Origin: Candidatus Saccharimonadales bacterium
GTDB taxonomy: Bacteria; Patescibacteriota; Saccharimonadia; Saccharimonadales; JANWIN01
DNA length: 64,000 bases
Reading direction: 5' to 3'
NCBI GenBank assembly: GCA_025449905.1
Contig: JANWIN010000012.1
Location: 109,318-173,317 of the forward strand
In this document: positions 4,884 to 54,609 of the stretch, one piece after another
How the letters are laid out: each line of letters opens with the position of its first letter
Numbering within the stretch: the stretch's first letter is position 1
Notes under the pieces: model-generated
Told to the model about the DNA's origin: nothing
What the model saw: the letters and a program-made list of their open reading frames with translations, nothing else
The model's database searches: none
Made by a program: the position numbers and the translations under genes

Positions 4884-5033
4884 ATGTTAATAACAATAGC
4901 TATAGTTTTAGGGCTTTTATGGTTGGTGGGGTTGTTGGGTCACGTTGGCGGCAATCTAGTACATCTTGTGCTGTTTGTCGCGATTGTGATACTTATTTAT
5001 GATTTCGTAACCGGTCGTCGCCACGAAGTTTAA
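4884..5033 (+). CDS. small membrane protein, lmo0937-family-like (49 aa)
   Basis: Hand-translated as MLITIAIVLGLLWLVGLLGHVGGNLVHLVLFVAIVILIYDFVTGRRHEV. An AAGGAGG Shine-Dalgarno lies at 4872-4878, 5 nt upstream of the ATG. The ORF falls below the track size cutoff. Confidence 0.6.
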   Translation: MLITIAIVLGLLWLVGLLGHVGGNLVHLVLFVAIVILIYDFVTGRRHEV

Positions 5034-5080
5034 AGTTGTAAAAACAGGGGTAATTTGCTAAAGTCCTCAGGAGTTTGACT

Positions 5081-5253
5081 GCCAGACAGTTTGGCTTTAG
5101 GCTAATGCTAGGAAAGCCTTTATTTGAGAGGTTGGGTGTATTTATATACATCTAGCCGACAAAATAAAGAAGCTTGACACAGCAGTAGCCAAAGAGCACA
5201 AACAGAATTTCTAAGTCTGTTAGAGAGCAGGTTTGTGTGGCCAAACTGTCTGG
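5081..5253 (+). other. 173-bp unit bounded by a perfect 14-bp inverted repeat; candidate structured ncRNA or MITE-like insert abutting tRNA-Lys
   Basis: CCAGACAGTTTGGC (5081-5094) is the exact reverse complement of GCCAAACTGTCTGG (5240-5253). Nested internal hairpins are present, for example cacaaacaga...tctgtt...gtttgtgtg. There is no ORF. Confidence 0.3.
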
Positions 5254-5330
5254 GGGCCCATAGCTCAGCTGGTTAGAGCACCTGCCTCTTAAGCAGGGTG
5301 TCGAGGGTTCGAGTCCCTCTGGGCCCTCCA
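5254..5330 (+). tRNA. tRNA-Lys (anticodon CTT), CCA encoded
   Basis: Cloverleaf read by hand: acceptor GGGCCCA/TGGGCCC, D-arm GCTC-AGCTGGTTA-GAGC, anticodon arm CCTGC-CTCTTAA-GCAGG, T-arm GAGGG-TTCGAGT-CCCTC. Confidence 0.95.
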
Positions 5331-8125: not shown

Positions 8126-9404
8126 AAACTGATTCAACAATTTTGAAAATTTCTTCTGGTATACTATTCGGCCCGAGTTTTTTATAGTCATAATCTTCTG
8201 GTAAATCAAAAACGTACTTATTAAGTTCTGGATACTTAGCTTGCGCTAGCTTCATTGCAGCGCGGCTTTCTTTAACCTCGCCGACGCAATCAAGCGGCTT
8301 ATGACCTTCAATGCCTAATAACTGGCGATAGGTTGACTCAAGTTCATTAGTAAGTAGCAGGTTTTTACCCCCAAATAAAGTCTCTAGCTCTTGTTGCTCG
8401 ACAAAAGGCGTCAAAATAAGAAAGGTGAAAGCGCACTTAGGGCATTCGCCACACCAAAAAATTTTGTCACTGCTGTGAATAAAAGCCCGGTTGCAAGAAC
8501 TAAATACCCTTTTGTATTTATTAAAACCAATTTTAGAAAATAATTCGGCAATTCTAACTTCGCTTAATGGTCTAAGCAGGGAATAGTAGCGTAAGTTATC
8601 ACCAAAGCAATGGCTTAAATATTGTTGGTAGTCCTTTTCGAATTCTAAAGATTTAGAGTACTGATGATTAATAGCCACTCCCTGATAGTGTAGATTCGGC
8701 TCACTGGCTGAACTTTCGTTGGAAACTACATTATCTTGGTAGCCACTTAATAATGCTACAATTGTGCCGACACAGGCAAAAATAGCCGAAATAGGGATAT
8801 GGCCGTTTAGAGCACCTTGCTTATTAAGCTCTAAAAGTTGCCTATCCCACTGACGTTCAACCCAAAAATGCTTGGTACCAATGGTTTGAACCAAAGGTTC
8901 AAGCTGCGAACGATGTGACAAACTCCAAGTAGCAACTTTGGGCTGATTCTTCAGCAGTTCGATGCTAACTAATGAATCTTTGCCACCGCCAATCCCGCTA
9001 AGCTGTCCTTCCCCTTCATTACTTAACATGTTAAGTGTCGAGTCACTATTAGTCGGAAAAACTATTACCGTATTCGGACTTAGCTTGTTTACGTATAAAA
9101 ACTCCCCTAGCCCCTTTTGATAAGTTTTGCTAAAAAAATCTGCGCTTGCTTGATCCAGATAACCTTTTTTTATTTCAATACCTGAGGGCATATAGGTTTT
9201 GTAGTATGAAACTCCGGCCATAAAAAATAAGGACTGAAAAGCTCGATCTAAAGCTTCTGTATTCATAGTTTTATAAAAATCAAAGTTGAACTGATAAGTT
9301 TCAGTAAAATTAAGCTGACTATCAAGACTATATTTTAGGGTTAAAGTTTTAGTAGCTTCCTCTAAACTATAATCCTCAAAAATAAAGTTTTGAAACTTAC
9401 TCAT
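8115..9404 (-). CDS. PP-loop ATPase-like protein coupled to murD; candidate MurL (UDP-MurNAc-L-Ala-L-Glu epimerase)
   Basis: SGIGGGKDS is a PP-loop-like motif (SGGxDS), and a C-terminal Cys cluster SSCNRAF...WCGECPKCAF is present. The start overlaps the murD stop by 4 nt (9401-9404). Confidence 0.5.
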   Translation of the reverse strand: MSKFQNFIFEDYSLEEATKTLTLKYSLDSQLNFTETYQFNFDFYKTMNTEALDRAFQSLFFMAGVSYYKTYMPSGIEIKKGYLDQASADFFSKTYQKGLGEFLYVNKLSPNTVIVFPTNSDSTLNMLSNEGEGQLSGIGGGKDSLVSIELLKNQPKVATWSLSHRSQLEPLVQTIGTKHFWVERQWDRQLLELNKQGALNGHIPISAIFACVGTIVALLSGYQDNVVSNESSASEPNLHYQGVAINHQYSKSLEFEKDYQQYLSHCFGDNLRYYSLLRPLSEVRIAELFSKIGFNKYKRVFSSCNRAFIHSSDKIFWCGECPKCAFTFLILTPFVEQQELETLFGGKNLLLTNELESTYRQLLGIEGHKPLDCVGEVKESRAAMKLAQAKYPELNKYVFDLPEDYDYKKLGPNSIPEEIFKIVESVFNS

Positions 9405-26581: not shown

Positions 26582-27823
26582 ATGAAATTCAAAAAACAAG
26601 CCCGACAGTATAAAAAAGAAGCTAAAGATTACGCTCGGATGCAAAAACGCCGAGCTCGCAATATTCAGGGCCACCCGTTTGTTGTCCCGGTACTAACTTT
26701 TTTGTTTTTGTTTTTCGTATCAATGATAGCTTTTATTGGCCTTAACGCTCAAACCATCGGTGCTGGTGATGCCCATGTTGTTCAGTTTTCCATCGACGGC
26801 GAAAAACAAGTTCTACCGACCCGGGCCAGCACGGTTGGCAAATTGCTAAATCGTCTTGAAATAAAAGTTGGCAAGCATGATGTTATCGAGCCGCCGCTGG
26901 ACACGCCGATTTTAGAAGATAATTTCAAAATCAATCTTTACCGCGCCAAGCCGGTGATTGTAGTCGAGGGCAAAAAAGAAGTTTCAATGCTAACAGCCAT
27001 AACTAGTCCCAAAAATGTTGTGACTAAAGCCGGTTTTAAATTATTTCCTGAAGATAGAGTGGTCTTAGCCAGTGCTGATGACGTTTTAAACGAAGGCGTT
27101 ATTGGGCACAAAATTATTATTGAGCATGCCACGCCTGTAAAACTAAATCTTTTTGGGCGCATGCTTAGTCTTAGAACCCATTCTAAAACTGCTCGAGAAC
27201 TTTTAAAAGAACGCGGCGTAGACGTCTCGGGAGTTAATGTCTTTCCTTCTATCAGTGCAAATCTAAAAAAAAATTCGGTGGTGTTTGTGACCAAACCGGG
27301 AATTGTTGTTAAATTCCAAGAAGTTAGTCTGCCGTTTGGCCAAAGTTTTGTTGATGATTATAGTCTGCCCTACGGCGTCACCAAAGTACGCAGCGCCGGT
27401 GAAAATGGTAAAAAGGTAATTGTATTTTCGGCACCAAAAAAGCATCCTGAACAAAAACACAAGCTTCAAGAAGTTTTGGTTAGTAGGCCGGTAAACGCGG
27501 TTATCGCCCGCGGGCGCCGCATCAATACTTCAAGTGTTTCTGGCGATCGGGCCGCTTTAATGGCCGCCGCCGGCATTTCATCTGGCGATTATTACGCCGT
27601 TGACTTTATTATTAGTCACGAATCCGGCTGGCGTCCTGGCGCTCTTAGCGGTAGTGGCTGCGCAGGGCTGGGCCAGGCTTGCCCGGGCTCAAAAGTTATA
27701 AGTGCTTGCCCTAACTGGTCTAACAATGCTGTTTGCCAGCTGCGCTTCTTTAGCGGTTATGCCCAGAGGTATGGGGGATGGCAGCAGGCGTATTTTGTGT
27801 GGCAAAATCAGGGCTGGTGGTGA
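26582..27823 (+). CDS. DUF348/G5-domain cell-wall protein with C-terminal transglycosylase-like domain
   Basis: An N-terminal TM is followed by DUF348-like repeats and a G5-like region (VRSAGENGKKV). The C-terminal ISHESGWRPGA...GLGQ...GWW resembles the Apf/SLT-like muralytic domain. Confidence 0.7.
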   Translation: MKFKKQARQYKKEAKDYARMQKRRARNIQGHPFVVPVLTFLFLFFVSMIAFIGLNAQTIGAGDAHVVQFSIDGEKQVLPTRASTVGKLLNRLEIKVGKHDVIEPPLDTPILEDNFKINLYRAKPVIVVEGKKEVSMLTAITSPKNVVTKAGFKLFPEDRVVLASADDVLNEGVIGHKIIIEHATPVKLNLFGRMLSLRTHSKTARELLKERGVDVSGVNVFPSISANLKKNSVVFVTKPGIVVKFQEVSLPFGQSFVDDYSLPYGVTKVRSAGENGKKVIVFSAPKKHPEQKHKLQEVLVSRPVNAVIARGRRINTSSVSGDRAALMAAAGISSGDYYAVDFIISHESGWRPGALSGSGCAGLGQACPGSKVISACPNWSNNAVCQLRFFSGYAQRYGGWQQAYFVWQNQGWW

Positions 27824-27838
27824 TCTGAGCAATGTGAC

Positions 27839-27881
27839 GTGCTGACCTGTTTTCGGGCAGAGCCCGAAACTCTGTCAGCAC
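27839..27881 (+). terminator. two-tier hairpin after the G5 gene (terminator candidate without U-tract)
   Basis: GTGCTGAC-ctgt-TTTCGGGC-aga-GCCCGAAA-ctct-GTCAGCAC. Confidence 0.45.
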
Positions 27882-27982
27882 TCTTGACGAATCGCTGTGT
27901 CAGTAACGCTCTGTCGCTCAGTCATCGTATTGGAATACGATTCCTTCGTTCCTCGCTACTTCCTAGCGCTTCATCCAAGCAC
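27881..27982 (+). repeat. copy A of the ~103-nt intergenic element family
   Basis: Alignable by eye with 42917-43019 and 53208-53310. Shared blocks are TCTTG(G/A)C, GC.G.GT, the hairpin ATCGTATT-gg-AATACGAT, TTCG..CTCG, CCTAGCGC, and C(A/C)(C/-)TC(C/A)AAG. Confidence 0.6.
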
Positions 27983-28019
27983 ATCGCTCAGGCGCCCCAT
28001 AGGGTACAATTAGCTCACA

Positions 28020-28832
28020 ATGGAAGATTTAGTAGCTAAGAAGTCGTTGGGGCAGCACTGGTTAACAGATAGCAACACCTTAGAGGCTATGTGTGATGCT
28101 GCCGCTGTTGTGACAGGGGACAATATTCTGGAAATAGGGCCGGGAAGGGGGTCTTTGACTGCTTCCCTATTAAGTCGCGGGGCAAAAGTGGTGGCGGTTG
28201 AATTAGATGAGCGTTTAGCGACTGATTTAAAGCGTAAATTTAAAGATCAACCCTTCACACTTAACATGTTAAGTATTATAGATTATGATTTATCCTCAAT
28301 GCCAGCTGATTATAAAATTGTTGCCAATATCCCTTATTATTTGACCAATCACCTGCTCCGCCTGCTGGTTGACACTTCCGCCCAGCCGCTTCAAGCCGCG
28401 CTTTTAGTTCAAAAAGAAGTCGCCGAGCGCGTCGTGGCAAAGCCAGGGGAGATGTCAATTGTCGCTGTGGCTGTTCAGCTTTTTTATAAACCAAGTCTTG
28501 GGCGCATTGTGCCGGCCCAACTGTTTGAGCCGCCGCCAAAAGTCGATTCACAAATTCTAATGCTCAAAAGGCGAAAACAACCACTGTTTGACGACACAGA
28601 AACCGATAAATTTATGAGAATAGTTAAAGCCGGCTTTAGCGCCAAACGCAAAAAACTACGCAGCAGCTTGGCTGGTGGCTTAAGAATCACAAAGCCCGAA
28701 GCTGAAAAATTATTACAAAAGGCAAAGATTGATCCCAACCAGCGTGCCCAGGAACTGACGCTGAATAACTGGCACGACCTCTACAAAATTGTACAACTTA
28801 GTGACGATCGTCAATATCTTGTACAATTTTAA
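28020..28832 (+). CDS. rsmA: 16S rRNA (adenine1518/1519-N6)-dimethyltransferase
   Basis: KSLGQHWL, the SAM motif LEIGPGRGSLT, and NIPYY. There is no SD. A TACAAT box at 28005-28010 lies 9 nt upstream of the ATG. Confidence 0.9.
   Translation: MEDLVAKKSLGQHWLTDSNTLEAMCDAAAVVTGDNILEIGPGRGSLTASLLSRGAKVVAVELDERLATDLKRKFKDQPFTLNMLSIIDYDLSSMPADYKIVANIPYYLTNHLLRLLVDTSAQPLQAALLVQKEVAERVVAKPGEMSIVAVAVQLFYKPSLGRIVPAQLFEPPPKVDSQILMLKRRKQPLFDDTETDKFMRIVKAGFSAKRKKLRSSLAGGLRITKPEAEKLLQKAKIDPNQRAQELTLNNWHDLYKIVQLSDDRQYLVQF
28787..28828 (+). repeat. 42-nt nested palindromic element, copy 1 (inside the rsmA 3' end)
   Basis: AATTGTACAA-ctta-GTGACGATCGTCA-atatc-TTGTACAATT. It is 37/42 identical to 47135-47176. 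Confidence 0.7.
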
Positions 28833-28848: not shown

Positions 28849-28882
28849 GATACTTGACATGTTAAGTATCACAAGCTAAAAT
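28849..28882 (+). promoter_or_regulatory. promoter TTGACA-N17-TAAAAT with an overlapping palindrome (candidate MarR operator)
   Basis: The palindrome GATACTTgACATGTtAAGTATC (28849-28870) covers the -35 TTGACA (28854-28859). The -10 TAAAAT is at 28877-28882. Confidence 0.5.
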
Positions 28883-30763: not shown

Positions 30764-31178
30764 GGGGCTGAATTAAGCTTGACGTTAGTACTTTATCGGT
30801 TAGATCAGCAGGTCGCTTGTCAGCGTTATAGGCAAAACCCAAGTAATTGCAAAATTTCTTGACCGCGTAGCTACTGCTTTCGAGAACGCACGTGCAAACG
30901 TTGCTTCTCTCTTTAGCAATCTAGCTTACGCACCAATTGCAGCTTAATATTATCTGCAATCGCGCCTAACATGACATCAGATAACGCTAGTGCGTGTCAT
31001 ATCATCTGGTTGCGCAGACTTTACGGTCCGTAAATCTGCTAAGACTTTAGGACACACAGAGAATGACTTTTTGGCTGTTTATCGGTCATTCTTTGTTCAA
31101 AGCTAAATAGCCTAAACCTGTAGGAAGACTAACTAATAAACTAAACGGACGCCGGAGCATTACCGGCCAGCTCCACCA
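30764..31178 (+). ncRNA. ssrA: tmRNA (transfer-messenger RNA)
   Basis: The 5' GGGGCTG pairs with the 3' CAGCTCC-A-CCA, including the G3:U70 alanine identity pair. The 3' end GGACGCCGGAGCATTACCGGCCAGCTCCACCA aligns with E. coli GGACGCGGGTTCAACTCCCGCCAGCTCCACCA. An internal tag frame ends ...LAYAPIAA-TAA (stop 30945-30947). Confidence 0.9.
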
Positions 31179-42195: not shown

Positions 42196-42510
42196 ATGAA
42201 CCAACAACTACCAGCAATGAACGATGTCCAGAAGAGAATGGTGACATTATCTATCGGTGTAGACCGAAAAACTACCATTAAAGCTTCGGTTTTATACATT
42301 GGTGACAGCGTTGTGGCTAGCAATAAACATAGCGAAGTCACGAGCGCAAAAGAAGTATCAGAGCAAGCTCCAGCAGTTGAGGCTAAAAAACTGACTTCAG
42401 AGCCTGAATTGATCGAGGCGGAGGAAGTCAGCATCCAAGAGAAACAGGCGCGGAGCGCAGTTTTTGAATCATTTAACGTAGGGAATCAAAATGTTCAAGA
42501 AGCCGTTTGA
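42196..42510 (+). CDS. hypothetical protein
   Basis: From the ORF track only (104 aa). It overlaps the next ORF by 20 nt. Confidence 0.4.
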   Translation: MNQQLPAMNDVQKRMVTLSIGVDRKTTIKASVLYIGDSVVASNKHSEVTSAKEVSEQAPAVEAKKLTSEPELIEAEEVSIQEKQARSAVFESFNVGNQNVQEAV

Positions 42511-42859
42511 TAAAATTATTTCGCAAAATCTAGAGAGAAAACGAACAAAGCTCTACCAAGCATATCTGAAGACCGAAGCTAAAGCTGGCGGCTATTTATT
42601 TGGCCAAGTACCACGAGGGATTCAACGAGAATTTTACTGCTTAGATGAGCAGAATTGGGTATGGCGCGAGCGCTGGTTGGACATGGACGGCCAAGTTCAG
42701 GTACACACCACCGAGTATCTTATTAAACAGGACGGCATCTTTAAATCTGAAAATAAAGCAGACTACCAGCGCGTAAGTAAAGATGAAGCCGAAAGTCTTT
42801 ACGATGCGGCTAAAGCGTACGAACAGACAATTGGCCAAGAAATCTACAACTTCGTCTAG
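42491..42859 (+). CDS. hypothetical protein
   Basis: From the ORF track only (122 aa, Trp/Tyr-rich). Confidence 0.45.
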   Translation: MFKKPFDKIISQNLERKRTKLYQAYLKTEAKAGGYLFGQVPRGIQREFYCLDEQNWVWRERWLDMDGQVQVHTTEYLIKQDGIFKSENKADYQRVSKDEAESLYDAAKAYEQTIGQEIYNFV

Positions 42860-42916
42860 AGAATTGTCGTCGCACGTAAACCTGCCAAATAGTAAAGCTA
42901 TTTGCACTGTTTCCTG

Positions 42917-43019
42917 CTCTTGGCGGACTGCGGTGTTGCAGGCTCCACTACTCGTTCATCGTATTTTATATACGACTCGCTCCGTTGCTCACCTGCGCCT
43001 TGCATTCCACTCAAGCGCC
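42917..43019 (+). repeat. copy B of the ~103-nt intergenic element family
   Basis: Alignable with copies A and C. The hairpin is TCGTAT-tttat-ATACGA. A TAAAAT box at 43039-43044 lies 10 nt upstream of the ATG at 43055. Confidence 0.6.
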
Positions 43020-43054
43020 AATCCTATAGATAGATTGCTAAAATAGGAAAGATA

Positions 43055-44200
43055 ATGGGAAAAATAATATATCTTGATCACGCTGCAGCTACTCCGGTTG
43101 ATCCGCGGGTTATGGCAGTAATGCAGCCGTATTTTTCTGAGGATTTTTATAATCCCTCAGCTATTTACTTAGCGGCTAAAAAAGTAAAAAAAGATATAGA
43201 AGCCTCCCGAGCTAAAGTTGCTGCTTGGATGGGTGCTCGCCCCAGTGAAATAACTTTTACGGCTGGCGGTACTGAGGCTAACAACCTGGCAATTAAAGGC
43301 GTCATGAGCCAGTTTCTGGCTGCAAACATTGTTATTAGCGAAATTGAGCATGAATCTGTCTTAAAACCGGCTCAGCAGCATAAATATAAAGTTGTTGGCG
43401 TAAAGCAGGATGGCTTAATTGATTTAGATAAGCTCGAGGCGTCAATAGACAGCAAAACGGTCCTAGTTAGTGTCATGCTGGCCAACAATGAAATTGGCAC
43501 GATTCAGCCCATCCGCAAAATCGGCCAACTGCTGGAAAAGCTAAGACAAGAACGTCTAACTAAAGGCAATAAAACCCCACTCTATTTTCACACCGATGCC
43601 TGCCAAGCCGCTAATTATATTGACTTGCACGCTAATCGCTTGGGGGTGGATTTGATGACAATTAACGGGGGTAAAATCTATGGCCCAAAACAGAGCGGCG
43701 CACTATTTATCAGAACCGGTACTAATTTAAAGCCGCAGATCTTGGGTGGCGGGCAAGAATCAGGTGTTAGATCTGGCACCGAAAATGTTGCCGGAATAAT
43801 TGGTTTGTCAAAAGCTCTGGATTTAGTACAGAAAAACCACCACGTCGAAACAGTTCGTTTGCAAAAATTGCAGCAACTCTTTTTTGAGCTTATTAATAAA
43901 CAAATGCCTCCTGCCCAAATTGTCGGCTCAGTCAAAAATCGGTTACCCAACAATGTCCATATCACTATTGCTGGCCAAGATAACGAACGACTAATTATGG
44001 AGCTCGATGAGCGTGGCGTTTTGTGTGCCGCCGGTTCAGCCTGCAGTGCCAGCAACGAAGATCCTTCACATGTACTTAAAGCCATCGGCTTATCAGATGA
44101 AGAGGCCCAAAGCTCACTGCGCTTTACTATGGGCCAAAGTACCACTGAATCTGATGTTAAACAGACCGTAAAAACTCTGGCTGGACTCGTTAATGGCTAA
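43055..44200 (+). CDS. cysteine desulfurase (NifS/IscS class V aminotransferase)
   Basis: YLDHAATTP, TSGGTE-like FTAGGTEANN, a PLP-Lys region, and the active-site loop GSACSA. Confidence 0.85.
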   Translation: MGKIIYLDHAAATPVDPRVMAVMQPYFSEDFYNPSAIYLAAKKVKKDIEASRAKVAAWMGARPSEITFTAGGTEANNLAIKGVMSQFLAANIVISEIEHESVLKPAQQHKYKVVGVKQDGLIDLDKLEASIDSKTVLVSVMLANNEIGTIQPIRKIGQLLEKLRQERLTKGNKTPLYFHTDACQAANYIDLHANRLGVDLMTINGGKIYGPKQSGALFIRTGTNLKPQILGGGQESGVRSGTENVAGIIGLSKALDLVQKNHHVETVRLQKLQQLFFELINKQMPPAQIVGSVKNRLPNNVHITIAGQDNERLIMELDERGVLCAAGSACSASNEDPSHVLKAIGLSDEEAQSSLRFTMGQSTTESDVKQTVKTLAGLVNG

Positions 44201-45236
44201 AGTATACGTCGGTTTAAGCGGCGGTGTTGATTCCTCGGTCACAGCTGCGCTGTTGAAACAGCAGGGCTACGATGTAACGGGGGTTTATATGAAGAACTGG
44301 ACTAAGGACATGCCAGGTTTTCCGTGCCCCTGGAAGGAAGATTATCAGGACGCCAAGCGGGTGGCGGTCCAGCTGGGTATTCCATTCAAAGTTTATGACT
44401 TCCAGACCAAGTATAAGCAGCTAGTTGTTGATTACATGATTGATGAGTATAAATCTGGCCAAACACCCAACCCTGATATTATTTGCAACCAAGAAGTTAA
44501 ATTTAAGCTGTTTTTGAATGCGGCCTTAAAAGATGGGGCCGATATGATTGCCACTGGCCACTATGCGCGGGTAAAAAACGGCCAGCTTTTGACGGCTAAA
44601 AATAAAGATAAGGACCAAACTTACTTTTTGTACATAGTTAGCGAAGACGCGCTTAAGAAAACGCTGTTTCCAATTGGTGAATTTACAGACAAAAAGCAGG
44701 TTAGAGAAATGGCTAAAAAGTTTGGCTTGGTTACGGCCGCCAAAAAGGATAGTCAGGGCATTTGTTTTGTGGGCCAGGTTGGGATTAAAGAATTTTTAAG
44801 CCAATACGTAAAAACTAAACCCGGCAAAATCATAGATGAAAACAACAAAATAATCGGCGAGCATGAAGGGGCAATTTTCTATACCATTGGCCAACGTCAT
44901 GGCCTAGATGTGGGAGGCGGATTGCCGTATTACGTAACCGGCAAAGATATGAAGAAGAATGAAGTTTATGTGACAACCAACTTAGACGATAAGCAGATTT
45001 GGGGCAGAGAAATTAAACTGACAGATGTTCACTGGATAAATGATGAGCCAAATGCTAAGAAAACTTATCAAGTACGAACTCGCCACAGAGCACCGCTTAT
45101 AAAAGGGACACTTAACAAGTTAAGTAATAAAACTTGGCAGATAAAATTAACAGATGAAGTCCGAGCTTTAACGGCTGGCCAATCAGCTGTAATTTATAAT
45201 GGCCAACACATTCTCGGTGGTGGCGTAATCGTCTGA
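44193..45236 (+). CDS. mnmA: tRNA 2-thiouridine(34) synthase
   Basis: PP-loop VGLSGGVDSSV and the KDQTYFL motif. It overlaps the desulfurase gene by 8 nt. Confidence 0.9.
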   Translation: MAKVYVGLSGGVDSSVTAALLKQQGYDVTGVYMKNWTKDMPGFPCPWKEDYQDAKRVAVQLGIPFKVYDFQTKYKQLVVDYMIDEYKSGQTPNPDIICNQEVKFKLFLNAALKDGADMIATGHYARVKNGQLLTAKNKDKDQTYFLYIVSEDALKKTLFPIGEFTDKKQVREMAKKFGLVTAAKKDSQGICFVGQVGIKEFLSQYVKTKPGKIIDENNKIIGEHEGAIFYTIGQRHGLDVGGGLPYYVTGKDMKKNEVYVTTNLDDKQIWGREIKLTDVHWINDEPNAKKTYQVRTRHRAPLIKGTLNKLSNKTWQIKLTDEVRALTAGQSAVIYNGQHILGGGVIV

Positions 45237-45251
45237 TACAATTAACAGATA

Positions 45252-47129
45252 ATGACAACGGCGGAAATTCGTACAGCTTATTTAGATTTTTTTGTAAAAA
45301 ATGGGCACAAAGTTATCCCGCGGGCGCGGATTGTGCCGGATAATGATCCAACCACGCTTTTTACTGGTTCAGGCATGCAGCCGCTGATGCCATACTTGCT
45401 TGGCGAAAAACACCCGGCAGGCACTCGAGTTACAGATACGCAAACTGTCTTTAGAGCAGATGATATTGATGAAATTGGGGACAACCGCCACACGACGTTT
45501 TTTGAAATGCTGGGCAACTGGAGCTTCGGTGATTACTTTAAAAAGGAACAAATACCTTGGTTTTGGGAATTTTTAACCGAAATTGTAAAACTCGACCCCA
45601 AAAAACTTTATGTAACTTGTTATAGCGGCGATGAAAAACTAGAGATTCCTAAAGATACTGAATCAGCAGAAATCTGGAAAAAGCTTTTTGAAGCAAAGGG
45701 CATTGAAGTTCAAGAAGCTGACATGAAAACCGAAGTCGAAGGTTATAAGATTGGCATGAAAGATGGCCAGCGGATTTTTTATTATCGTGACAAAAACTGG
45801 TGGAGTAGAGTCGGTGAACCGGATAATATGCCAGCAGGTGAACCGGGTGGCCCAGACACAGAAGTCTTTTTTGATACAGGCGCTGAGCACAATAAAAATT
45901 ATGGTGAACATTGCCACCCCAACTGTGACTGTGGTCGTTGGATAGAAGTCGGCAACTCAGTTTTTATGCAGTACATCAAAAATGACAAGGGCGGCTTTGA
46001 CGAGTTACCAAATAAAAATGTTGACTTCGGTGGCGGTCTGGAGCGAATAGCATCGGCAAGTATTGGCGGCCATGATATGTTCAAAATTGATCTGCTTTGG
46101 CCGATTATTGAAAAGCTACAGGAAATGTCAGGCAAGAAGTATGAAGATCACGTTGAAGCTAAGCGTATTATTGCTGATCATCTTAGGGCCGCTGTTTTCA
46201 TGGCCGGGGATGGAGTAACACCAAGTAACAAAACCCAAGGTTATATTTTGCGCCGATTGCTTCGCCGGGCTATACGCCAGGGCCACGAACTTGGAATTGA
46301 AGACGGTCTTTTCCGAGTGGTTGCACCAATGGTTATGGACATGTACCGTGAACCATTTCCTGAAGTTGCTAAAGATGAAAAAATTGTCATTTCAGTACTA
46401 GAGAAAGAAGAAAAACTCTTTCGTCAGACACTTCGCAAAGGCCTGCGCGAGTTTGAGAAAATTATTAAGAAAGGTTTGGACGGTAAAACCATTTTTACGC
46501 TGTTTGATACCTACGGTTTTCCGCCCGAGCTATCTGTTGAAGAGGCCAAAAAACGCAGTATTGGCGTACCTGAAAATTGGCAAAAAGACTATGAAGCCGA
46601 ACTGGAAAAACAACGTGAGCGTTCGCGCACGGCCGCCGCTGGTATGTTCAAGGGCGGTTTGGCTGAACACTCCAAACAAACCATCAAGTACCACACTGCC
46701 ACCCATCTAATGTATAAAGCTTTGCGGCTAGTTCTGGGCGACCATGTTGAACAGCGCGGCAGTAACATTACTAGCGAGCGTCTACGTTTTGATTTTAACC
46801 ACCCGCAAAAAATGACTGATGAGGAAATCAAAAAAGTTGAAAACATTGTTAATGAGCAAATTGATAAAGATTTGACGGTAACCTGGAAAGAAATGCCGAC
46901 CAAAGAGGGCTTGGCAACAGGGGCGCGCGGCCACTTTGGCGAAAAATACGGCGACACCGTGAAGGTTTACATAATGGGTCCAGAAGACAATCCCTACACA
47001 ATGGAACTGTGCGGTGGTCCGCACGTTGAGCACACCGGAATACTAGGCGAAGATGGCAAGCATTTCAAAATCATCAAAGAAGAATCTAGCGCCGCTGGCA
47101 TCCGCCGCATCAAAGCCGTTTTAGGGTAA
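45252..47129 (+). CDS. alaS: alanine--tRNA ligase, short form lacking the C-Ala domain
   Basis: The class II AlaRS N-terminus is IRTAYLDFFVKNGHKVIP...FTGSGMQP. Editing-domain motifs HTATHL and CGGPHV are present. The protein ends at 625 aa, right after the editing domain. Confidence 0.85.
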   Translation: MTTAEIRTAYLDFFVKNGHKVIPRARIVPDNDPTTLFTGSGMQPLMPYLLGEKHPAGTRVTDTQTVFRADDIDEIGDNRHTTFFEMLGNWSFGDYFKKEQIPWFWEFLTEIVKLDPKKLYVTCYSGDEKLEIPKDTESAEIWKKLFEAKGIEVQEADMKTEVEGYKIGMKDGQRIFYYRDKNWWSRVGEPDNMPAGEPGGPDTEVFFDTGAEHNKNYGEHCHPNCDCGRWIEVGNSVFMQYIKNDKGGFDELPNKNVDFGGGLERIASASIGGHDMFKIDLLWPIIEKLQEMSGKKYEDHVEAKRIIADHLRAAVFMAGDGVTPSNKTQGYILRRLLRRAIRQGHELGIEDGLFRVVAPMVMDMYREPFPEVAKDEKIVISVLEKEEKLFRQTLRKGLREFEKIIKKGLDGKTIFTLFDTYGFPPELSVEEAKKRSIGVPENWQKDYEAELEKQRERSRTAAAGMFKGGLAEHSKQTIKYHTATHLMYKALRLVLGDHVEQRGSNITSERLRFDFNHPQKMTDEEIKKVENIVNEQIDKDLTVTWKEMPTKEGLATGARGHFGEKYGDTVKVYIMGPEDNPYTMELCGGPHVEHTGILGEDGKHFKIIKEESSAAGIRRIKAVLG

Positions 47130-47134
47130 TCTGA

Positions 47135-47176
47135 AATTGTACAACTTTGTGACGATCGTCACGATTATGTACAATT
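47135..47176 (+). repeat. 42-nt nested palindromic element, copy 2 (5 nt after the alaS stop)
   Basis: AATTGTACA-acttt-GTGACGATCGTCAC-gatta-TGTACAATT. It is 37/42 identical to 28787-28828. Confidence 0.7.
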
Positions 47177-47216
47177 TGGCTGGTGCGAAAACAGTAAAAG
47201 CGTTATTATTTAGATC

Positions 47217-51992: not shown

Positions 51993-53153
51993 GTGTTGTC
52001 TTTGTTACTATTTATCGGACTCACCACCAGTGGTGAGCAGGAGAAGTATATTCGTACCTCATCAAGAACTATCAATCAGTTAGCTCAAGATAAGTTACAA
52101 GCTCAATCCGATCAGTACAAACGCTTAAGTAAGCGTATTTTTAAACAGTACAAAAAAAGAATTGTTCGCTATAGCGTTCTAGCGGCCAACGCCGCCTTGT
52201 TAGTATTAGTTTTAGTAGTGGTCCATTCGCCAGATACAGGCCAGTCAATTGCTAAATCGGCAGTTTCAGCTAGCAGCTCAGATACAGTCAATGCCGTAGA
52301 TCAATTGTCTTCAGCCGATATTGCCGTAAACGTTGCCAAGATGACCAATCTGGCAGAATCAACTTCGGTAGCTAATAATGCCGACAGTGTTAATATACGT
52401 CTGGCTTTAGCAAATTCTAGCGAAACTGTTATTGGCAAGCCGCAGGTTATTAGCACCGATATTAAGTCGCGTAGTGATATCCAGACCTACGTTGTTCAAA
52501 GCGGCGACACGATTAGCTCATTGGCCTCTAAGTTTAACGTTACCTCCGACACACTGCGCTGGTCTAACGCCATTTCCGGCGACAGCTTAGAGCCCGGTAG
52601 TGTGCTAAGGGTTTTGCCCGGTGTAAATGGCATTATTTATCTGGTTCGCGGCGGTGATACGCCAGAATCTTTGGCCAGCCGTTTCCAGGTTAGCAAAGAC
52701 ATCATCATTGCTTATAACGATGCCGAAGTCGGCGGCCTGCCGGTAGGCGGCTATATTATTATTCCTGGCGGCACGCCGGCCATAGTCGGCACACCGGCAA
52801 GCAGTAATACGGTAGCTGGCTTTACGCCGAGCTATGGTTATAACGGCTATGATTACGGTTGGTGTACTTGGTACGTAGCTTCTAAGATTTCAGTACCAAC
52901 TAACTGGGGCAATGCCAATACTTGGAGCGTTTATGCGCCATCTAGCGGCTGGTCTGTCAGCCAGGCCCCTCGAGCAGGCGGTATTGGCCAGACAACTGGC
53001 GGTTGGGCTGGTCACGTTGCTTATATCGAAGCCGTGTCTCCAGATGGCAGTATGGTTAAATTCTCTGATATGAACGGTTTAGCTGGCTGGGGTCGAGTTG
53101 GTAGAAGCGACTGGGTGCCGGCTTCACACTTCGACAACTACATCTACCGCTAG
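51993..53153 (+). CDS. peptidoglycan hydrolase with two LysM domains and a C-terminal CHAP domain
   Basis: LysM repeats YVVQSGDTISSLASKFNV and YLVRGGDTPESLASRFQV. CHAP Cys context WCTWYV and His context GHVAYIE. GTG start in the track. Confidence 0.8.
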   Translation: MLSLLLFIGLTTSGEQEKYIRTSSRTINQLAQDKLQAQSDQYKRLSKRIFKQYKKRIVRYSVLAANAALLVLVLVVVHSPDTGQSIAKSAVSASSSDTVNAVDQLSSADIAVNVAKMTNLAESTSVANNADSVNIRLALANSSETVIGKPQVISTDIKSRSDIQTYVVQSGDTISSLASKFNVTSDTLRWSNAISGDSLEPGSVLRVLPGVNGIIYLVRGGDTPESLASRFQVSKDIIIAYNDAEVGGLPVGGYIIIPGGTPAIVGTPASSNTVAGFTPSYGYNGYDYGWCTWYVASKISVPTNWGNANTWSVYAPSSGWSVSQAPRAGGIGQTTGGWAGHVAYIEAVSPDGSMVKFSDMNGLAGWGRVGRSDWVPASHFDNYIYR

Positions 53154-53166
53154 AAGCTATGTAACA

Positions 53167-53207
53167 TTCTAGCCTGCTCCTGAGCAGAACTCAGGATTCT
53201 GCTAGAA
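53167..53207 (+). terminator. two-tier hairpin after the LysM-CHAP gene (terminator candidate without U-tract)
   Basis: TTCTAGC...CCTGAG-cagaa-CTCAGG...GCTAGAA. Confidence 0.45.
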
Positions 53208-53310
53208 TTCTTGGCACGCTGCGTTGTTAACTTCCTGTGCGACTCAATCACCGTATTTCATATACGGCTCTTTCGCTACTCGTTGTTTCCTAGCAGCGCA
53301 CTCAAGTACA
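53208..53310 (+). repeat. copy C of the ~103-nt intergenic element family
   Basis: Alignable with copies A and B. The hairpin CCGTAT-ttcat-ATACGG carries compensatory T>C and A>G changes. A TATAAT box at 53330-53335 lies 11 nt upstream of the ATG at 53347. Confidence 0.6.
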
Positions 53311-53346
53311 TAACTTCTAGTATTTCGCATATAATTATAACTAGAG

Positions 53347-54609
53347 ATGTTTGTAGACACTGTAAAAATAAAGCTTGAGGCTGGCAAAGGTGGTGATGGC
53401 GCAGTTAGTTTTCGGCATGAAAAATATGTTGACCGCGGCGGACCGGATGGTGGTGATGGCGGTAGGGGTGGCGATATTATCCTAGAGGCCAGCCGTAATC
53501 AAAACACGCTGGCAGCTTTTCGGCATAAGAAATTATTAAAAGCTCAAGATGGCCAAACTGGCAGTAAGGTAAAGCGTCATGGCAAAAGCGGCCAGAATTT
53601 AATCGTACCCGTGCCGATTGGAACGGTGGCAATTGATAAAACCGGCAAGGTTTTAGCTGATCTAACAAACGATAACCAACAAACGGTAATTGCTAACGGC
53701 GGACAGGGTGGTTTTGGCAATGCTCACTTTGTGTCATCGCGCCGTCAAGCTCCACGCATAGCTGAAAATGGTGAGAAGGGTGACAAGCTGGAAGTTAGCT
53801 TGGAGCTTAAATTAATAGCTGATGTGGGCATTGTTGGCCTGCCAAATGCCGGTAAAAGCACCCTGCTGTCAGTAATTAGTCATGCTCGGCCGGAAATCGC
53901 CGATTATCCATTTACAACTCTAGCGCCTAACTTGGGGATGGTTGATATTGATAAAAAAACCAGCCTGTTATTTGCAGATATCCCCGGATTGATTGCCGGC
54001 GCTAGCCACGGCAAGGGTTTGGGCGATGAATTTTTACGGCACGTTGAGCGCACTAGTGTACTGGTGCACTTAATCGATGTTTATGAGAACGTCACCAGGG
54101 CTTACAAAATAATTCAAAAAGAATTGAAGGATTACAAAATCGACTTGTCCAAGCGGCCGCAAATTATCGCGCTTACCAAAACCGAGGGCCTAAATAAAAA
54201 GGAGATTAGTGCCGTGACTCGTGAGCTAAAGCCGTTTTTACCCAAGAAGACTCCACTACTGGCTATTTCTGCCCAGAGCCACGAAAATCTGGACAAACTG
54301 CTTTATAAAGCCAAAGAACTGGTAGCCAAACACAAAGTCGCCAAACCCAAACAAGGCAAGAAGAAATTGCCGGTGTTGCGTCTACCTCGCAGCCTAGATT
54401 CTTGGAAGGTTGTGAGGCGGGGCGATAAATATATAATTTCTGGTCGCAAGATTGAGCGCTTTGCAGAGCGGACGGATTTTGATAATCCCGAAGCCGTTGC
54501 CAGGTTGAGGAATATTATAAAAAAAATGGGTATTGCTCACGAACTAATCAGGCAAGGCATCAAATCTAACGAAACGATTGTAATTGGTAAGAGCAGCCTC
54601 AAATGGTAG
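53347..54609 (+). CDS. obgE: GTPase ObgE/CgtA
   Basis: Obg fold MFVDTVKIKLEAGKGGDG with Gly-rich repeats, G1 GLPNAGKST, G3 DIPGL, and a C-terminal OCT-like domain. Confidence 0.9.
   Translation: MFVDTVKIKLEAGKGGDGAVSFRHEKYVDRGGPDGGDGGRGGDIILEASRNQNTLAAFRHKKLLKAQDGQTGSKVKRHGKSGQNLIVPVPIGTVAIDKTGKVLADLTNDNQQTVIANGGQGGFGNAHFVSSRRQAPRIAENGEKGDKLEVSLELKLIADVGIVGLPNAGKSTLLSVISHARPEIADYPFTTLAPNLGMVDIDKKTSLLFADIPGLIAGASHGKGLGDEFLRHVERTSVLVHLIDVYENVTRAYKIIQKELKDYKIDLSKRPQIIALTKTEGLNKKEISAVTRELKPFLPKKTPLLAISAQSHENLDKLLYKAKELVAKHKVAKPKQGKKKLPVLRLPRSLDSWKVVRRGDKYIISGRKIERFAERTDFDNPEAVARLRNIIKKMGIAHELIRQGIKSNETIVIGKSSLKW

Follow-up and report, generated by a model that had tools for sequence, protein, structure and literature searches.

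A structured repeat in front of an iscS-like gene of Candidatus Saccharimonadales, probably one copy of a dispersed palindromic family of Patescibacteria

Introduction

In a stretch of 64,000 nucleotides from a Candidatus Saccharimonadales bacterium (contig JANWIN010000012.1, positions 109,318 to 173,317; the whole stretch is here called the window), a structured repeat lies between an open reading frame (ORF), orf122, and the genes of an IscS-like cysteine desulfurase and of MnmA. This repeat, copy B, is probably a single insertion from a Patescibacteria family of dispersed, non-autonomous palindromic repeats that resembles the Rickettsia palindromic elements (RPEs); we would put the probability of this reading at about 0.58. 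The element is some 170 nt long, and its purine-rich strand is predicted to fold into a three-way junction with a closing stem P1, a long arm H1 and a short arm H2. What was found corresponds to the RPE-like class: a long stem-loop of 100-170 nt, present in many copies and fused in frame into unrelated genes, where it contributes a common peptide. The element would be, or would have been, mobile in a non-autonomous way and may survive where its harm is least.

Extent and fold of copy B

A preliminary description, made from the letters of the sequence, had placed an element of about 103 nt at 42917-43019 and had assigned it to the same family as 27881-27982. A repeat of this family is indeed present there, as a hidden Markov model (HMM), the covariance model R1 and a degenerate core pattern agree. 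R1 and nhmmer call copy B at 42915-43019 (102 bits, E 6e-25); its homologues in the window are found at 27879-27983 (copy A) and 53206-53310 (copy C). When copies A-C are made into an HMM, it retrieves 27877-27989, 42915-43025 and 53204-53315 (E 1e-28 to 3e-30) and otherwise only noise. The core pattern, 29-31 nt long, matches exactly copies A, B and C, with 0.00 matches expected in shuffles. Copies A-C are a real repeat, well beyond chance.

The boundaries, in contrast, had been drawn too narrowly. The 103 nt are just the H1 arm of a larger unit, which also includes P1 and H2 and has its core at 42857-43028. The full-length model R2 matches copy B at 42850-43033 (146 bits, E 1e-38). Its alignment places the whole structured unit P1-H1-H2-P1' on the minus strand at 42857-43028, and the minimum free energy (MFE) structure is a three-way junction. 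On this strand, the 5' strand of the closing stem P1 (UAUAGGAUUGGCG) occupies 43016-43028 and pairs with the 3' strand at 42857-42869; the P1 columns covary in 58 copies. H1, a hairpin of 97 nt with GA-rich internal loops, extends over 42919-43015, within the R1 match, and has the conserved apex GAGYCGUAU-loop-AUACGRUGA. The second hairpin, H2 (46 nt), is aligned by R2 to 42872-42917, and all of its pairs show compensatory changes. Its apex reads AAATAGC-TTT-ACTATTT on the minus strand and is identical with the small "terminator-like" hairpin visible on the plus strand of copy B; the small plus-strand hairpin "upstream" of each copy in the window is likewise the H2 apex. The last three bases of P1 are the plus-strand TAG stop codon (42857-42859) of the ORF at 42491-42859, which is orf122. 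Outside copy B, a native spacer (43029-43054, plus strand) precedes the iscS-like gene; it contains TAAAAT at 43039-43044 and the Shine-Dalgarno-like AGGAAAG at 43045-43051.

The folding strand had been mis-assigned, too. By the energies, it is the minus, purine-rich strand that folds. The RNA folding energy of the copy B core is -54.9 kcal/mol (z -2.7) for the minus strand versus -41.3 kcal/mol (z -1.3) for the plus strand; as minus-strand DNA the core yields -28.5 kcal/mol (z -2.6). Single-sequence folding of copies A-C gives z values of -2.9, -3.1 and -4.2 for the minus strand versus -0.35, -2.5 and -2.8 for the plus strand. The proposed pairing of TTGGCG (42920-42925) with CGCCAA (43016-43021) survives in part. 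Both blocks are where they were said to be, they are complementary, and the pairing is confined to copy B. Its register, however, is shifted and conflicts with the conserved structure. There, CTTG (42919-42922) pairs with CAAG (43012-43015), which is kept in copies A and C through covariation, and GGCG (minus strand, 43016-43019) is part of P1.

The TAAAAT hexamer had been correctly located 10 nt before the ATG at 43055, and the doubt about its being a promoter was reasonable: a promoter scan at copy B was no better than chance (1 site versus 1.1 expected). No terminator-like site was found at copy B, nor is a sigma-70-like promoter or an intrinsic terminator conspicuous there.

An ORF of 87 aa (42783-43046, plus strand) runs through the pyrimidine-rich strand of copy B. 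It exists as listed, yet it had rightly been suspected not to be a gene. It overlaps the end of orf122 in a different frame, has no Pfam match and finds no candidate homologue among 5.8 billion proteins. Frames open across H1 amount to 211 of 324 on the pyrimidine strand versus 55 of 324 on the other one, because pyrimidine-rich sequence is poor in stop codons. Judged by its sequence, the 87-aa ORF is an artefact of composition.

The family and its consensus fold

The core pattern was scanned over one genome per GTDB species, which yielded 13 loci. Nine of them carry the labels Saccharibacteria, Paceibacterota or Patescibacteria, two are named "bacterium" only, and two are assigned to Gammaproteobacteria. 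The last two, L005 and L012, are low-GC metagenome-assembled genomes (MAGs) labelled "uncultured Gammaproteobacteria", which may be due to mislabelling or mis-binning. A scan of metagenomes met 95 stretches; in the 80 of them that are listed, R1 detected 94 further matches. By pattern scans and covariance models, more than 100 copies exist beyond the window, mostly in MAGs labelled Saccharibacteria, Paceibacterota or Patescibacteria. Viral contigs contained 0 matches to the element.

The fold is backed by extensive covariation. RNAalifold proposed a hairpin of 31 pairs from 15 copies, with -32.4 kcal/mol in the purine-rich orientation versus -17.7 kcal/mol for the complement. In the H1 alignment of 83 distinct copies, which is based on R1 and therefore fitted to the model, 94.6% of the cells are standard pairs versus 71.1% in column shuffles; an independent MAFFT/RNAalifold result concurs. 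The observed pairing was reached by none of 500 shuffles, and sliding the partners by 1-3 columns lowers it to 26-42%. Double-sided changes occur in 27 of the 31 H1 pairs. A MAFFT alignment of 58 full-length copies led RNAalifold to a consensus of 59 pairs comprising P1, H1 and H2, and compensatory changes are seen in 52 of these.

Paired positions contain 214 G.U versus 47 A.C combinations, though composition predicts slightly more A.C, and G.U is conserved at two of them. The purine strand is the more stable one in 75 of 78 copies (means of -37.6 versus -28.9 kcal/mol). The G.U excess and this stability imply that one strand is the selected fold. On the purine strand, the sequence 5' of H1 pairs with a sequence about 50 nt 3' of it; the resulting P1 encloses H2. 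MFE folds of about 90 extended copies repeatedly show the three-way junction, with -60 to -100 kcal/mol. In some lineages, mostly of low GC content, H2 is absent and P1 continues H1. This form can be arranged in tandem, as in L010 (2670-3239; 4.4 copies, 130-nt period, 97% matches) and in the low-GC MAG L012 (7796-8000; at least 2 copies, 120-nt period). The apex is the best conserved part, and the base and termini, i.e., P1, are the least conserved; unpaired columns (0.62-0.90) exceed paired ones (0.46-0.67) in conservation.

At the gathering threshold, Rfam 15 found tRNA and tmRNA only in the window and the 13 loci; in an E-value search with copy B, the best match had an E of 0.45 over a fragment of 27 nt. 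No conserved promoter could be seen by eye 5' of 92 copies. The orientation relative to the local GC skew is weakly biased (41:27).

A number of resemblances were considered and given up. An association with tRNA is limited to copy D (see below), which adjoins one; the two tRNAs of L009 are about 3.7 kb away from the nearest copy. Partial model matches in L049 and L089, considered as potential ends of an autonomous element, are merely degenerate copies. The similarity to a T7 promoter occurs in L010 only, by chance. With domain V of group II introns, only the 9-mer GAGCCGUAU is common, and there is no Rfam match. For a topology like that of 5S rRNA the arm sizes are wrong, and against TIGR arrays stand the identical "spacers" of the tandem copies. 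The idea of a CsrA sponge was dropped; the GGA motifs are located in internal loops. Integron attC sites carry conserved R/L boxes basally, vary at the apex and form cassette arrays; here, the apex is the most and the base the least conserved part, and the neighbours of the repeat are core housekeeping genes.

Copies inside genes

The single copy of L110 resides inside tatD. The TatD protein of this locus has 322 aa versus 267 aa in the window; in a BLASTP comparison, gaps totalling 54 residues fall exactly on the element, and the frame resumes thereafter. A screen that by design demands open frames, which had to cross H1 and to continue for 60 codons or more to each side of it, disclosed nine genic copies. 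In all of them the purine strand is the sense strand and is read in one and the same frame. The proteins concerned are TatD (2), LigA (2), YchF, a MurC-like ligase, Fpg, TsaD and a methyltransferase. The TatD copies of L047 and L110 share the same site. Those of LigA (L043 1303-3492, minus strand; L009 5204-7429, plus strand) occupy different sites in the NAD-dependent DNA ligase; in L043, the element is found about 10 residues before the KMDG adenylation motif, which is the KxDG lysine motif.

The consensus purine strand has a single stop-free frame. It specifies a hydrophilic peptide of about 54 residues (...LD.VQGAGEQRTEPYMKYGEGAAQ.ATQ.SAKSASG...) with a grand average of hydropathy (GRAVY) of -0.55. 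On the pyrimidine strand, all three frames of the consensus are open, and two of them encode hydrophobic peptides rich in Cys and Leu (GRAVY +0.65 and +0.71). These plausibly explain the 9:0 orientation of the genic copies.

A profile of the peptide was built from short "hypothetical proteins", which are gene calls on intergenic copies. Searched exhaustively over 1.84 billion representative proteins (E <= 1e-3), it matched 235 of them, mostly ORFs of 50-100 aa; a word-indexed search with the same profile retrieved only 10 short ORFs. The long matches comprise PrmC (3), a pseudouridine synthase of the S4/RluA type, FolD, a DNA methylase, a Y-family polymerase, malic enzyme, DHFR, Dus, GATase, NrdR, MsrA and Ogt (2). 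In these proteins, at least 14 further Pfam-defined types, the peptide is placed between or within domains. The open frames and the frame-keeping lengths of the inserts indirectly suggest that the inserted peptide may be translated and tolerated. Proteins P0121-P0130 and most of P0131-P0273 are "hypothetical proteins" of 50-100 aa that translate intergenic copies and are probably annotation artefacts. Among 13 sense-oriented intergenic copies that adjoin ORFs or are near to them, no split gene was found, and the idea of an intron or of translational bypass was abandoned for this reason.

Relation to neighbouring genes

The preliminary description had presented the element as one upstream of the cysteine desulfurase-mnmA pair. 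This position is not shared by four relatives. Within Candidatus Saccharimonadales, one homologue of the IscS-like protein of the window is 100% identical, and the next best one 75%; a look-up of this protein by its exact sequence gave no entry. In four orthologous iscS loci (L109-L112; IscS identity 69-75%) the spacers measure 105, 2, 5 and 35 nt versus 195 nt in the window, and R1 with filters off finds no element upstream of iscS in any of the four. In L111, moreover, the CHAP gene and obg, which in the window enclose copy C, are just 65 nt apart, without an element. With filters off, R1 detects a single copy in all of the roughly 50 kb of these relatives, the one in L110. Presence and absence at orthologous sites thus differ between relatives, which are, however, just 69-75% identical in IscS.

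A fixed link to the downstream gene is not supported either: the orientation varies, and copies reside in frame inside unrelated genes. For about 107 copies, orientation was counted on a crude ORF map. The purine strand is antisense to both flanking genes in 37 cases and sense to both in 21; 16 copies lie between convergent and 8 between divergent genes. In L065, the element is sense-oriented between ComEC and YebC and also between RuvC and RuvA; in L084, it flanks ftsX. As a regular feature, one end of the element is about 0-15 nt away from the stop codon of the upstream gene. Copies B and C themselves close with a trinucleotide that is, on the plus strand, the TAG stop. The L109 orthologue of orf122 also ends with ...FV-TAG, which means that the orf122 protein is unaltered by the element. 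Copies A-C end 26-27 nt before an ATG, and a -10-like hexamer follows each of them. The equal distance is that of a short native spacer and no spacing rule of the element. Copy B is not an iscS-mnmA leader or a control region specific to those genes. The position and orientation near orthologous genes, which would be conserved in a cis-regulatory leader or a riboswitch, are not, and the promoter and terminator at fixed distances that an independent small RNA gene would possess are not seen, the former 5' of 92 copies and the latter at copy B.

R2 finds exactly four copies in the window; the copies of the window are 51-60% identical. The Pfam neighbours of copy B are orf122 (no family), followed by the Aminotran_5 cysteine desulfurase and MnmA. 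Copy A (R2 match 27817-27997, minus strand, 144 bits) has its full unit at 27824-27992 on the minus strand, 1 nt past the TGA stop codon (27821-27823) of a G5-domain gene, and ends 27 nt before the ATG of rsmA; its Pfam neighbours are a G5/DUF348 protein and then RsmA. Copy C (R2 match 53144-53324, minus strand, 148 bits; full unit 53151-53319, minus strand) has as its terminal TAG (53151-53153) the stop codon of a LysM/CHAP gene; downstream, obg starts at 53347, and the Pfam neighbours accordingly are a LysM/CHAP protein and Obg.

Copy D is diverged and was first detected by R1 with filters off (34 bits). R2 matches it at 5077-5260 on the plus strand (83 bits, E 3e-21). Its full unit, 5082-5253 on the plus strand, has an MFE of -50.3 kcal/mol (z -9.95); the H1 apex differs, while P1, H2 and the basal part of H1 are common with the family. 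Its last base adjoins a tRNA-Lys gene on the same strand (5254-5330), and RNase P would cut exactly at the 3' end of copy D if the two are co-transcribed. Between a 244-aa ORF and copy D there is a short ORF (4885-5034, plus strand) for a hydrophobic peptide of about 49 aa (MLITIAIVLGLLWLVGLL...), which is preceded by AAGGAGG.

Origin of the repeat

The insertion that gave rise to copy B would have occurred at the TAG stop of orf122, inside a tatD-orf-orf-iscS-mnmA string that is tightly packed in the relatives. Copy B would then be carried passively in the tatD...iscS-mnmA transcript, in the weaker-folding, pyrimidine-rich orientation, and the native spacer of 26 nt with the ribosome-binding site of iscS would have been left intact. 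Spread or maintenance may depend on recognition of the folded single strand, be it RNA or single-stranded DNA; the conserved loops, both apical and internal, would be recognised, and not the termini.

A series of observations weighs against a mobile, RPE-like repeat. No transposase or other partner gene was found in any locus; between the inverted copy pairs of L084 and L043, the intervening genes are only ftsX, ligA and those of membrane proteins. TA...TA, set within CTAG, borders copies B and C; copies A and D are bordered by complementary dinucleotides that extend P1. As to a target-site duplication, there is no filled/empty pair close enough to be aligned, and MFE-based boundaries are too noisy. 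Conservation is weakest in the termini, P1, and strongest in the loops, which is the reverse of transposase-bound inverted repeats. Young copies are missing: the maximum pairwise identity is 0.80, and pairs from the same locus (0.587) are as diverged as all pairs of the alignment (0.579). Positional orthologues exist between ComEC and YebC in L058 and L065 and in TatD of L047 and L110. There, 15 and 17 pairs, respectively, are changed on both sides yet still paired, while 13 and 12 are broken. Such compensated changes imply either that the fold is under selection while its locus stays fixed or that gene conversion has acted, and neither is predicted for a decaying selfish insert. Pairing could, of course, also be restored without selection if template switching corrected quasi-palindromes, but specific G.U pairs and GA-rich internal loops would not be kept in this way.

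The copies might instead be host-maintained structured RNAs or cis-acting RNA modules, in which the purine-strand three-way junction would be the functional form and its loops, bound by a conserved protein, would act on RNA stability, processing or 3'-end formation; mobility would explain their origin only. We consider this possible but rather unlikely. The strong covariation, the conserved G.U pairs and loops, the conservation of unpaired over paired columns and the compensated changes at a fixed locus would be expected, and so would the persistence of the family across several Patescibacteria lineages and the site of copy D next to tRNA-Lys on the same strand, from which RNase P would cleanly release it. 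Yet in about 60% of the copies between co-directional genes the folding strand is antisense to both neighbours, and no conserved promoter is seen 5' of the copies. Orthologous sites, moreover, lack the element, as do about 40 kb of related genomes, its copies inside coding regions are constrained to remain in frame, and no Rfam family covers it. Equally tentative is the idea of the three-way junction as a module that functions in single-stranded form, be it a dispersed RNA signal which the host selects at each locus, even inside mRNAs of essential genes, or an element like a short interspersed nuclear element (SINE) that is copied via RNA of the purine strand. The strand-specific fold, the conservation of loops over stems and the variable termini speak in its favour, as do the lack of young copies and the 15-17 base pairs which same-position copies of different lineages have exchanged while remaining paired.

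A classical MITE (miniature inverted-repeat transposable element), cut and pasted by a DDE transposase (e.g., of the IS630/Tc1-mariner type) via its terminal inverted repeats, appears improbable. It would account for the small size, for P1 as terminal inverted repeat, for the TA flanks in CTAG context at copies B and C, for the preference for intergenic sites and for the differences in presence between related genomes, but not for termini that are most variable and covary instead of being conserved. Also, copies A and D lack direct TA repeats, no related insertion sequence was seen in any locus, and a strand-asymmetric fold has no role in double-stranded cut-and-paste transposition. That copy B is a 5' leader or promoter-proximal regulatory element of the iscS-like/mnmA operon, with copies A and C serving rsmA and obg likewise, is very improbable. 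The uniform distance of copies A-C to the ATG of translation-related genes and the -10-like hexamers after them might suggest it, yet the distance is constant because the insertions are at the upstream stop codons of short native spacers. Orthologous upstream regions of iscS and obg have no element, the folding strand is antisense to the iscS-like, rsmA and obg genes, at other loci unrelated genes follow the element or are interrupted by it, in either orientation, and the promoter scan remained at chance. Hardly credible at all is a small protein gene, be it the 87-aa ORF or a frame of 41 codons on the minus strand (DWRLSGMQGAGEQRSESYIKYDERVVEPATPQSAKSRKQCK). Copy B is open in the sense frame, and many intergenic copies are annotated as hypothetical proteins of 50-75 aa. 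But apart from the lack of homologues and Pfam matches of the 87-aa ORF, copies A and C have stops in the peptide frame, the purine strand is open across H1 in only about half of all copies, the apical loops of intergenic copies vary in length by non-multiples of three, and the covariation is one of Watson-Crick and G.U pairs, not of codons. By these stops and loop lengths, the intergenic copies are not small genes in the sense frame either.

Other features of the window

A tmRNA gene is found at 30764-31178 on the plus strand (415 nt matched to a model of 374 positions; ARAGORN made no call). R2 found no copy of the element within this gene. The 14-nt palindrome CTTRACATGTYAAG occurs five times with at most one mismatch (2641-2654, 9022-9035, 28260-28273, 28853-28866 and 45111-45124) versus 0.09 expected, mostly within coding regions. 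It is also seen in L079 at 2035-2048 and 2831-2844, in one case just 3' of a copy of the element. An uptake signal, an operator or a methylation site are possibilities. Finally, a repeat of 44 nt (89% identical) is present at 28786-28829 and 47134-47177; it is inverted in itself, with AAATTGTACAA...TTGTACAATTT enclosing GTGACGATCGTCA. One copy lies at the extreme end of rsmA, the other just past a 625-aa ORF that ends at 47129; the copy at 28786-28829 is directly followed, at 28850, by the palindrome.

Known repeats and significance

According to two papers (PMC2229807; PMC10969869), RPEs (Ogata et al. 2000, 2002) are long stem-loops of 105-146 bp with terminal inverted repeats, which are found between genes, fused in frame into 19 conserved genes and also in the genes of tmRNA and RNase P RNA; a target-site duplication is called uncertain there. 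With RPEs and the protein-coding palindromes of Wolbachia, the repeat described here has in common the long stem-loops of 100-170 nt with terminal inverted repeats, the many copies and the small, reduced genome of a host-dependent bacterium. As with RPEs, intergenic copies coexist with in-frame genic ones, a conserved peptide is encoded, and one copy is located at an RNA gene, here that of a tRNA. The differences are evident. The Patescibacteria element belongs to another phylum and to several lineages instead of one genus, it forms a three-way junction with an optional second arm, and it displays extensive covariation, a single-strand (G.U) signature and compensated changes between positional orthologues. 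The two are likened by behaviour, and homology is not claimed.

ERIC/IRU and Correia (NEMIS) are enterobacterial and neisserial MITE-like elements, respectively, which are transcribed; Correia elements have target-site duplications and a binding site for integration host factor. They, too, are dispersed imperfect palindromes of about 100-150 bp in either orientation near gene ends, some with TA at the termini, and may alter the ends of neighbouring genes. Their termini, however, are conserved, whereas the Patescibacteria element has variable ends, conserved interior loops and frequent in-frame genic copies. REPs measure 20-40 nt and have a GTAG or CGTC head. REP/REPIN systems, with their RAYT of the Y1 HUH type, and the hairpin ends of IS200/IS605 are of interest since recognition of a folded strand would explain the strand asymmetry; REP/REPIN are also non-autonomous and long-lived within lineages. 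Yet no RAYT or TnpA gene was seen in the loci of the element, and in contrast to IS200/IS605 its bias versus GC skew is only weak (see above). By analogy, the element seems to behave as RPEs do and, less closely, as ERIC and Correia elements do, with homology shown to none of them. In the searchable full-text literature on Patescibacteria, Saccharibacteria and the candidate phyla radiation (CPR), no description of such a repeat was found, which is no proof of absence.

If the repeat is what we think it is, gene calls on it would account for dozens of Patescibacteria "hypothetical proteins" of 50-75 aa, and the unexplained insertions of about 54 residues in TatD, LigA, PrmC, FolD and others would share one origin. 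What looks like conserved "leaders" upstream of housekeeping genes would be insertions. Patescibacteria genomes are among the smallest and most streamlined in bacteria. That a repeat of 170 nt is tolerated or kept there at 4 copies per 64 kb, and inside essential enzymes, is unexpected, and it parallels what has long counted as a peculiarity of Rickettsia. The finding is not categorically new, but is relevant to the fields of CPR genomes, mobile DNA and RNA structure. The clean covariation defines a three-armed fold with conserved loops, which may be used to seek the protein or enzyme that recognises it.

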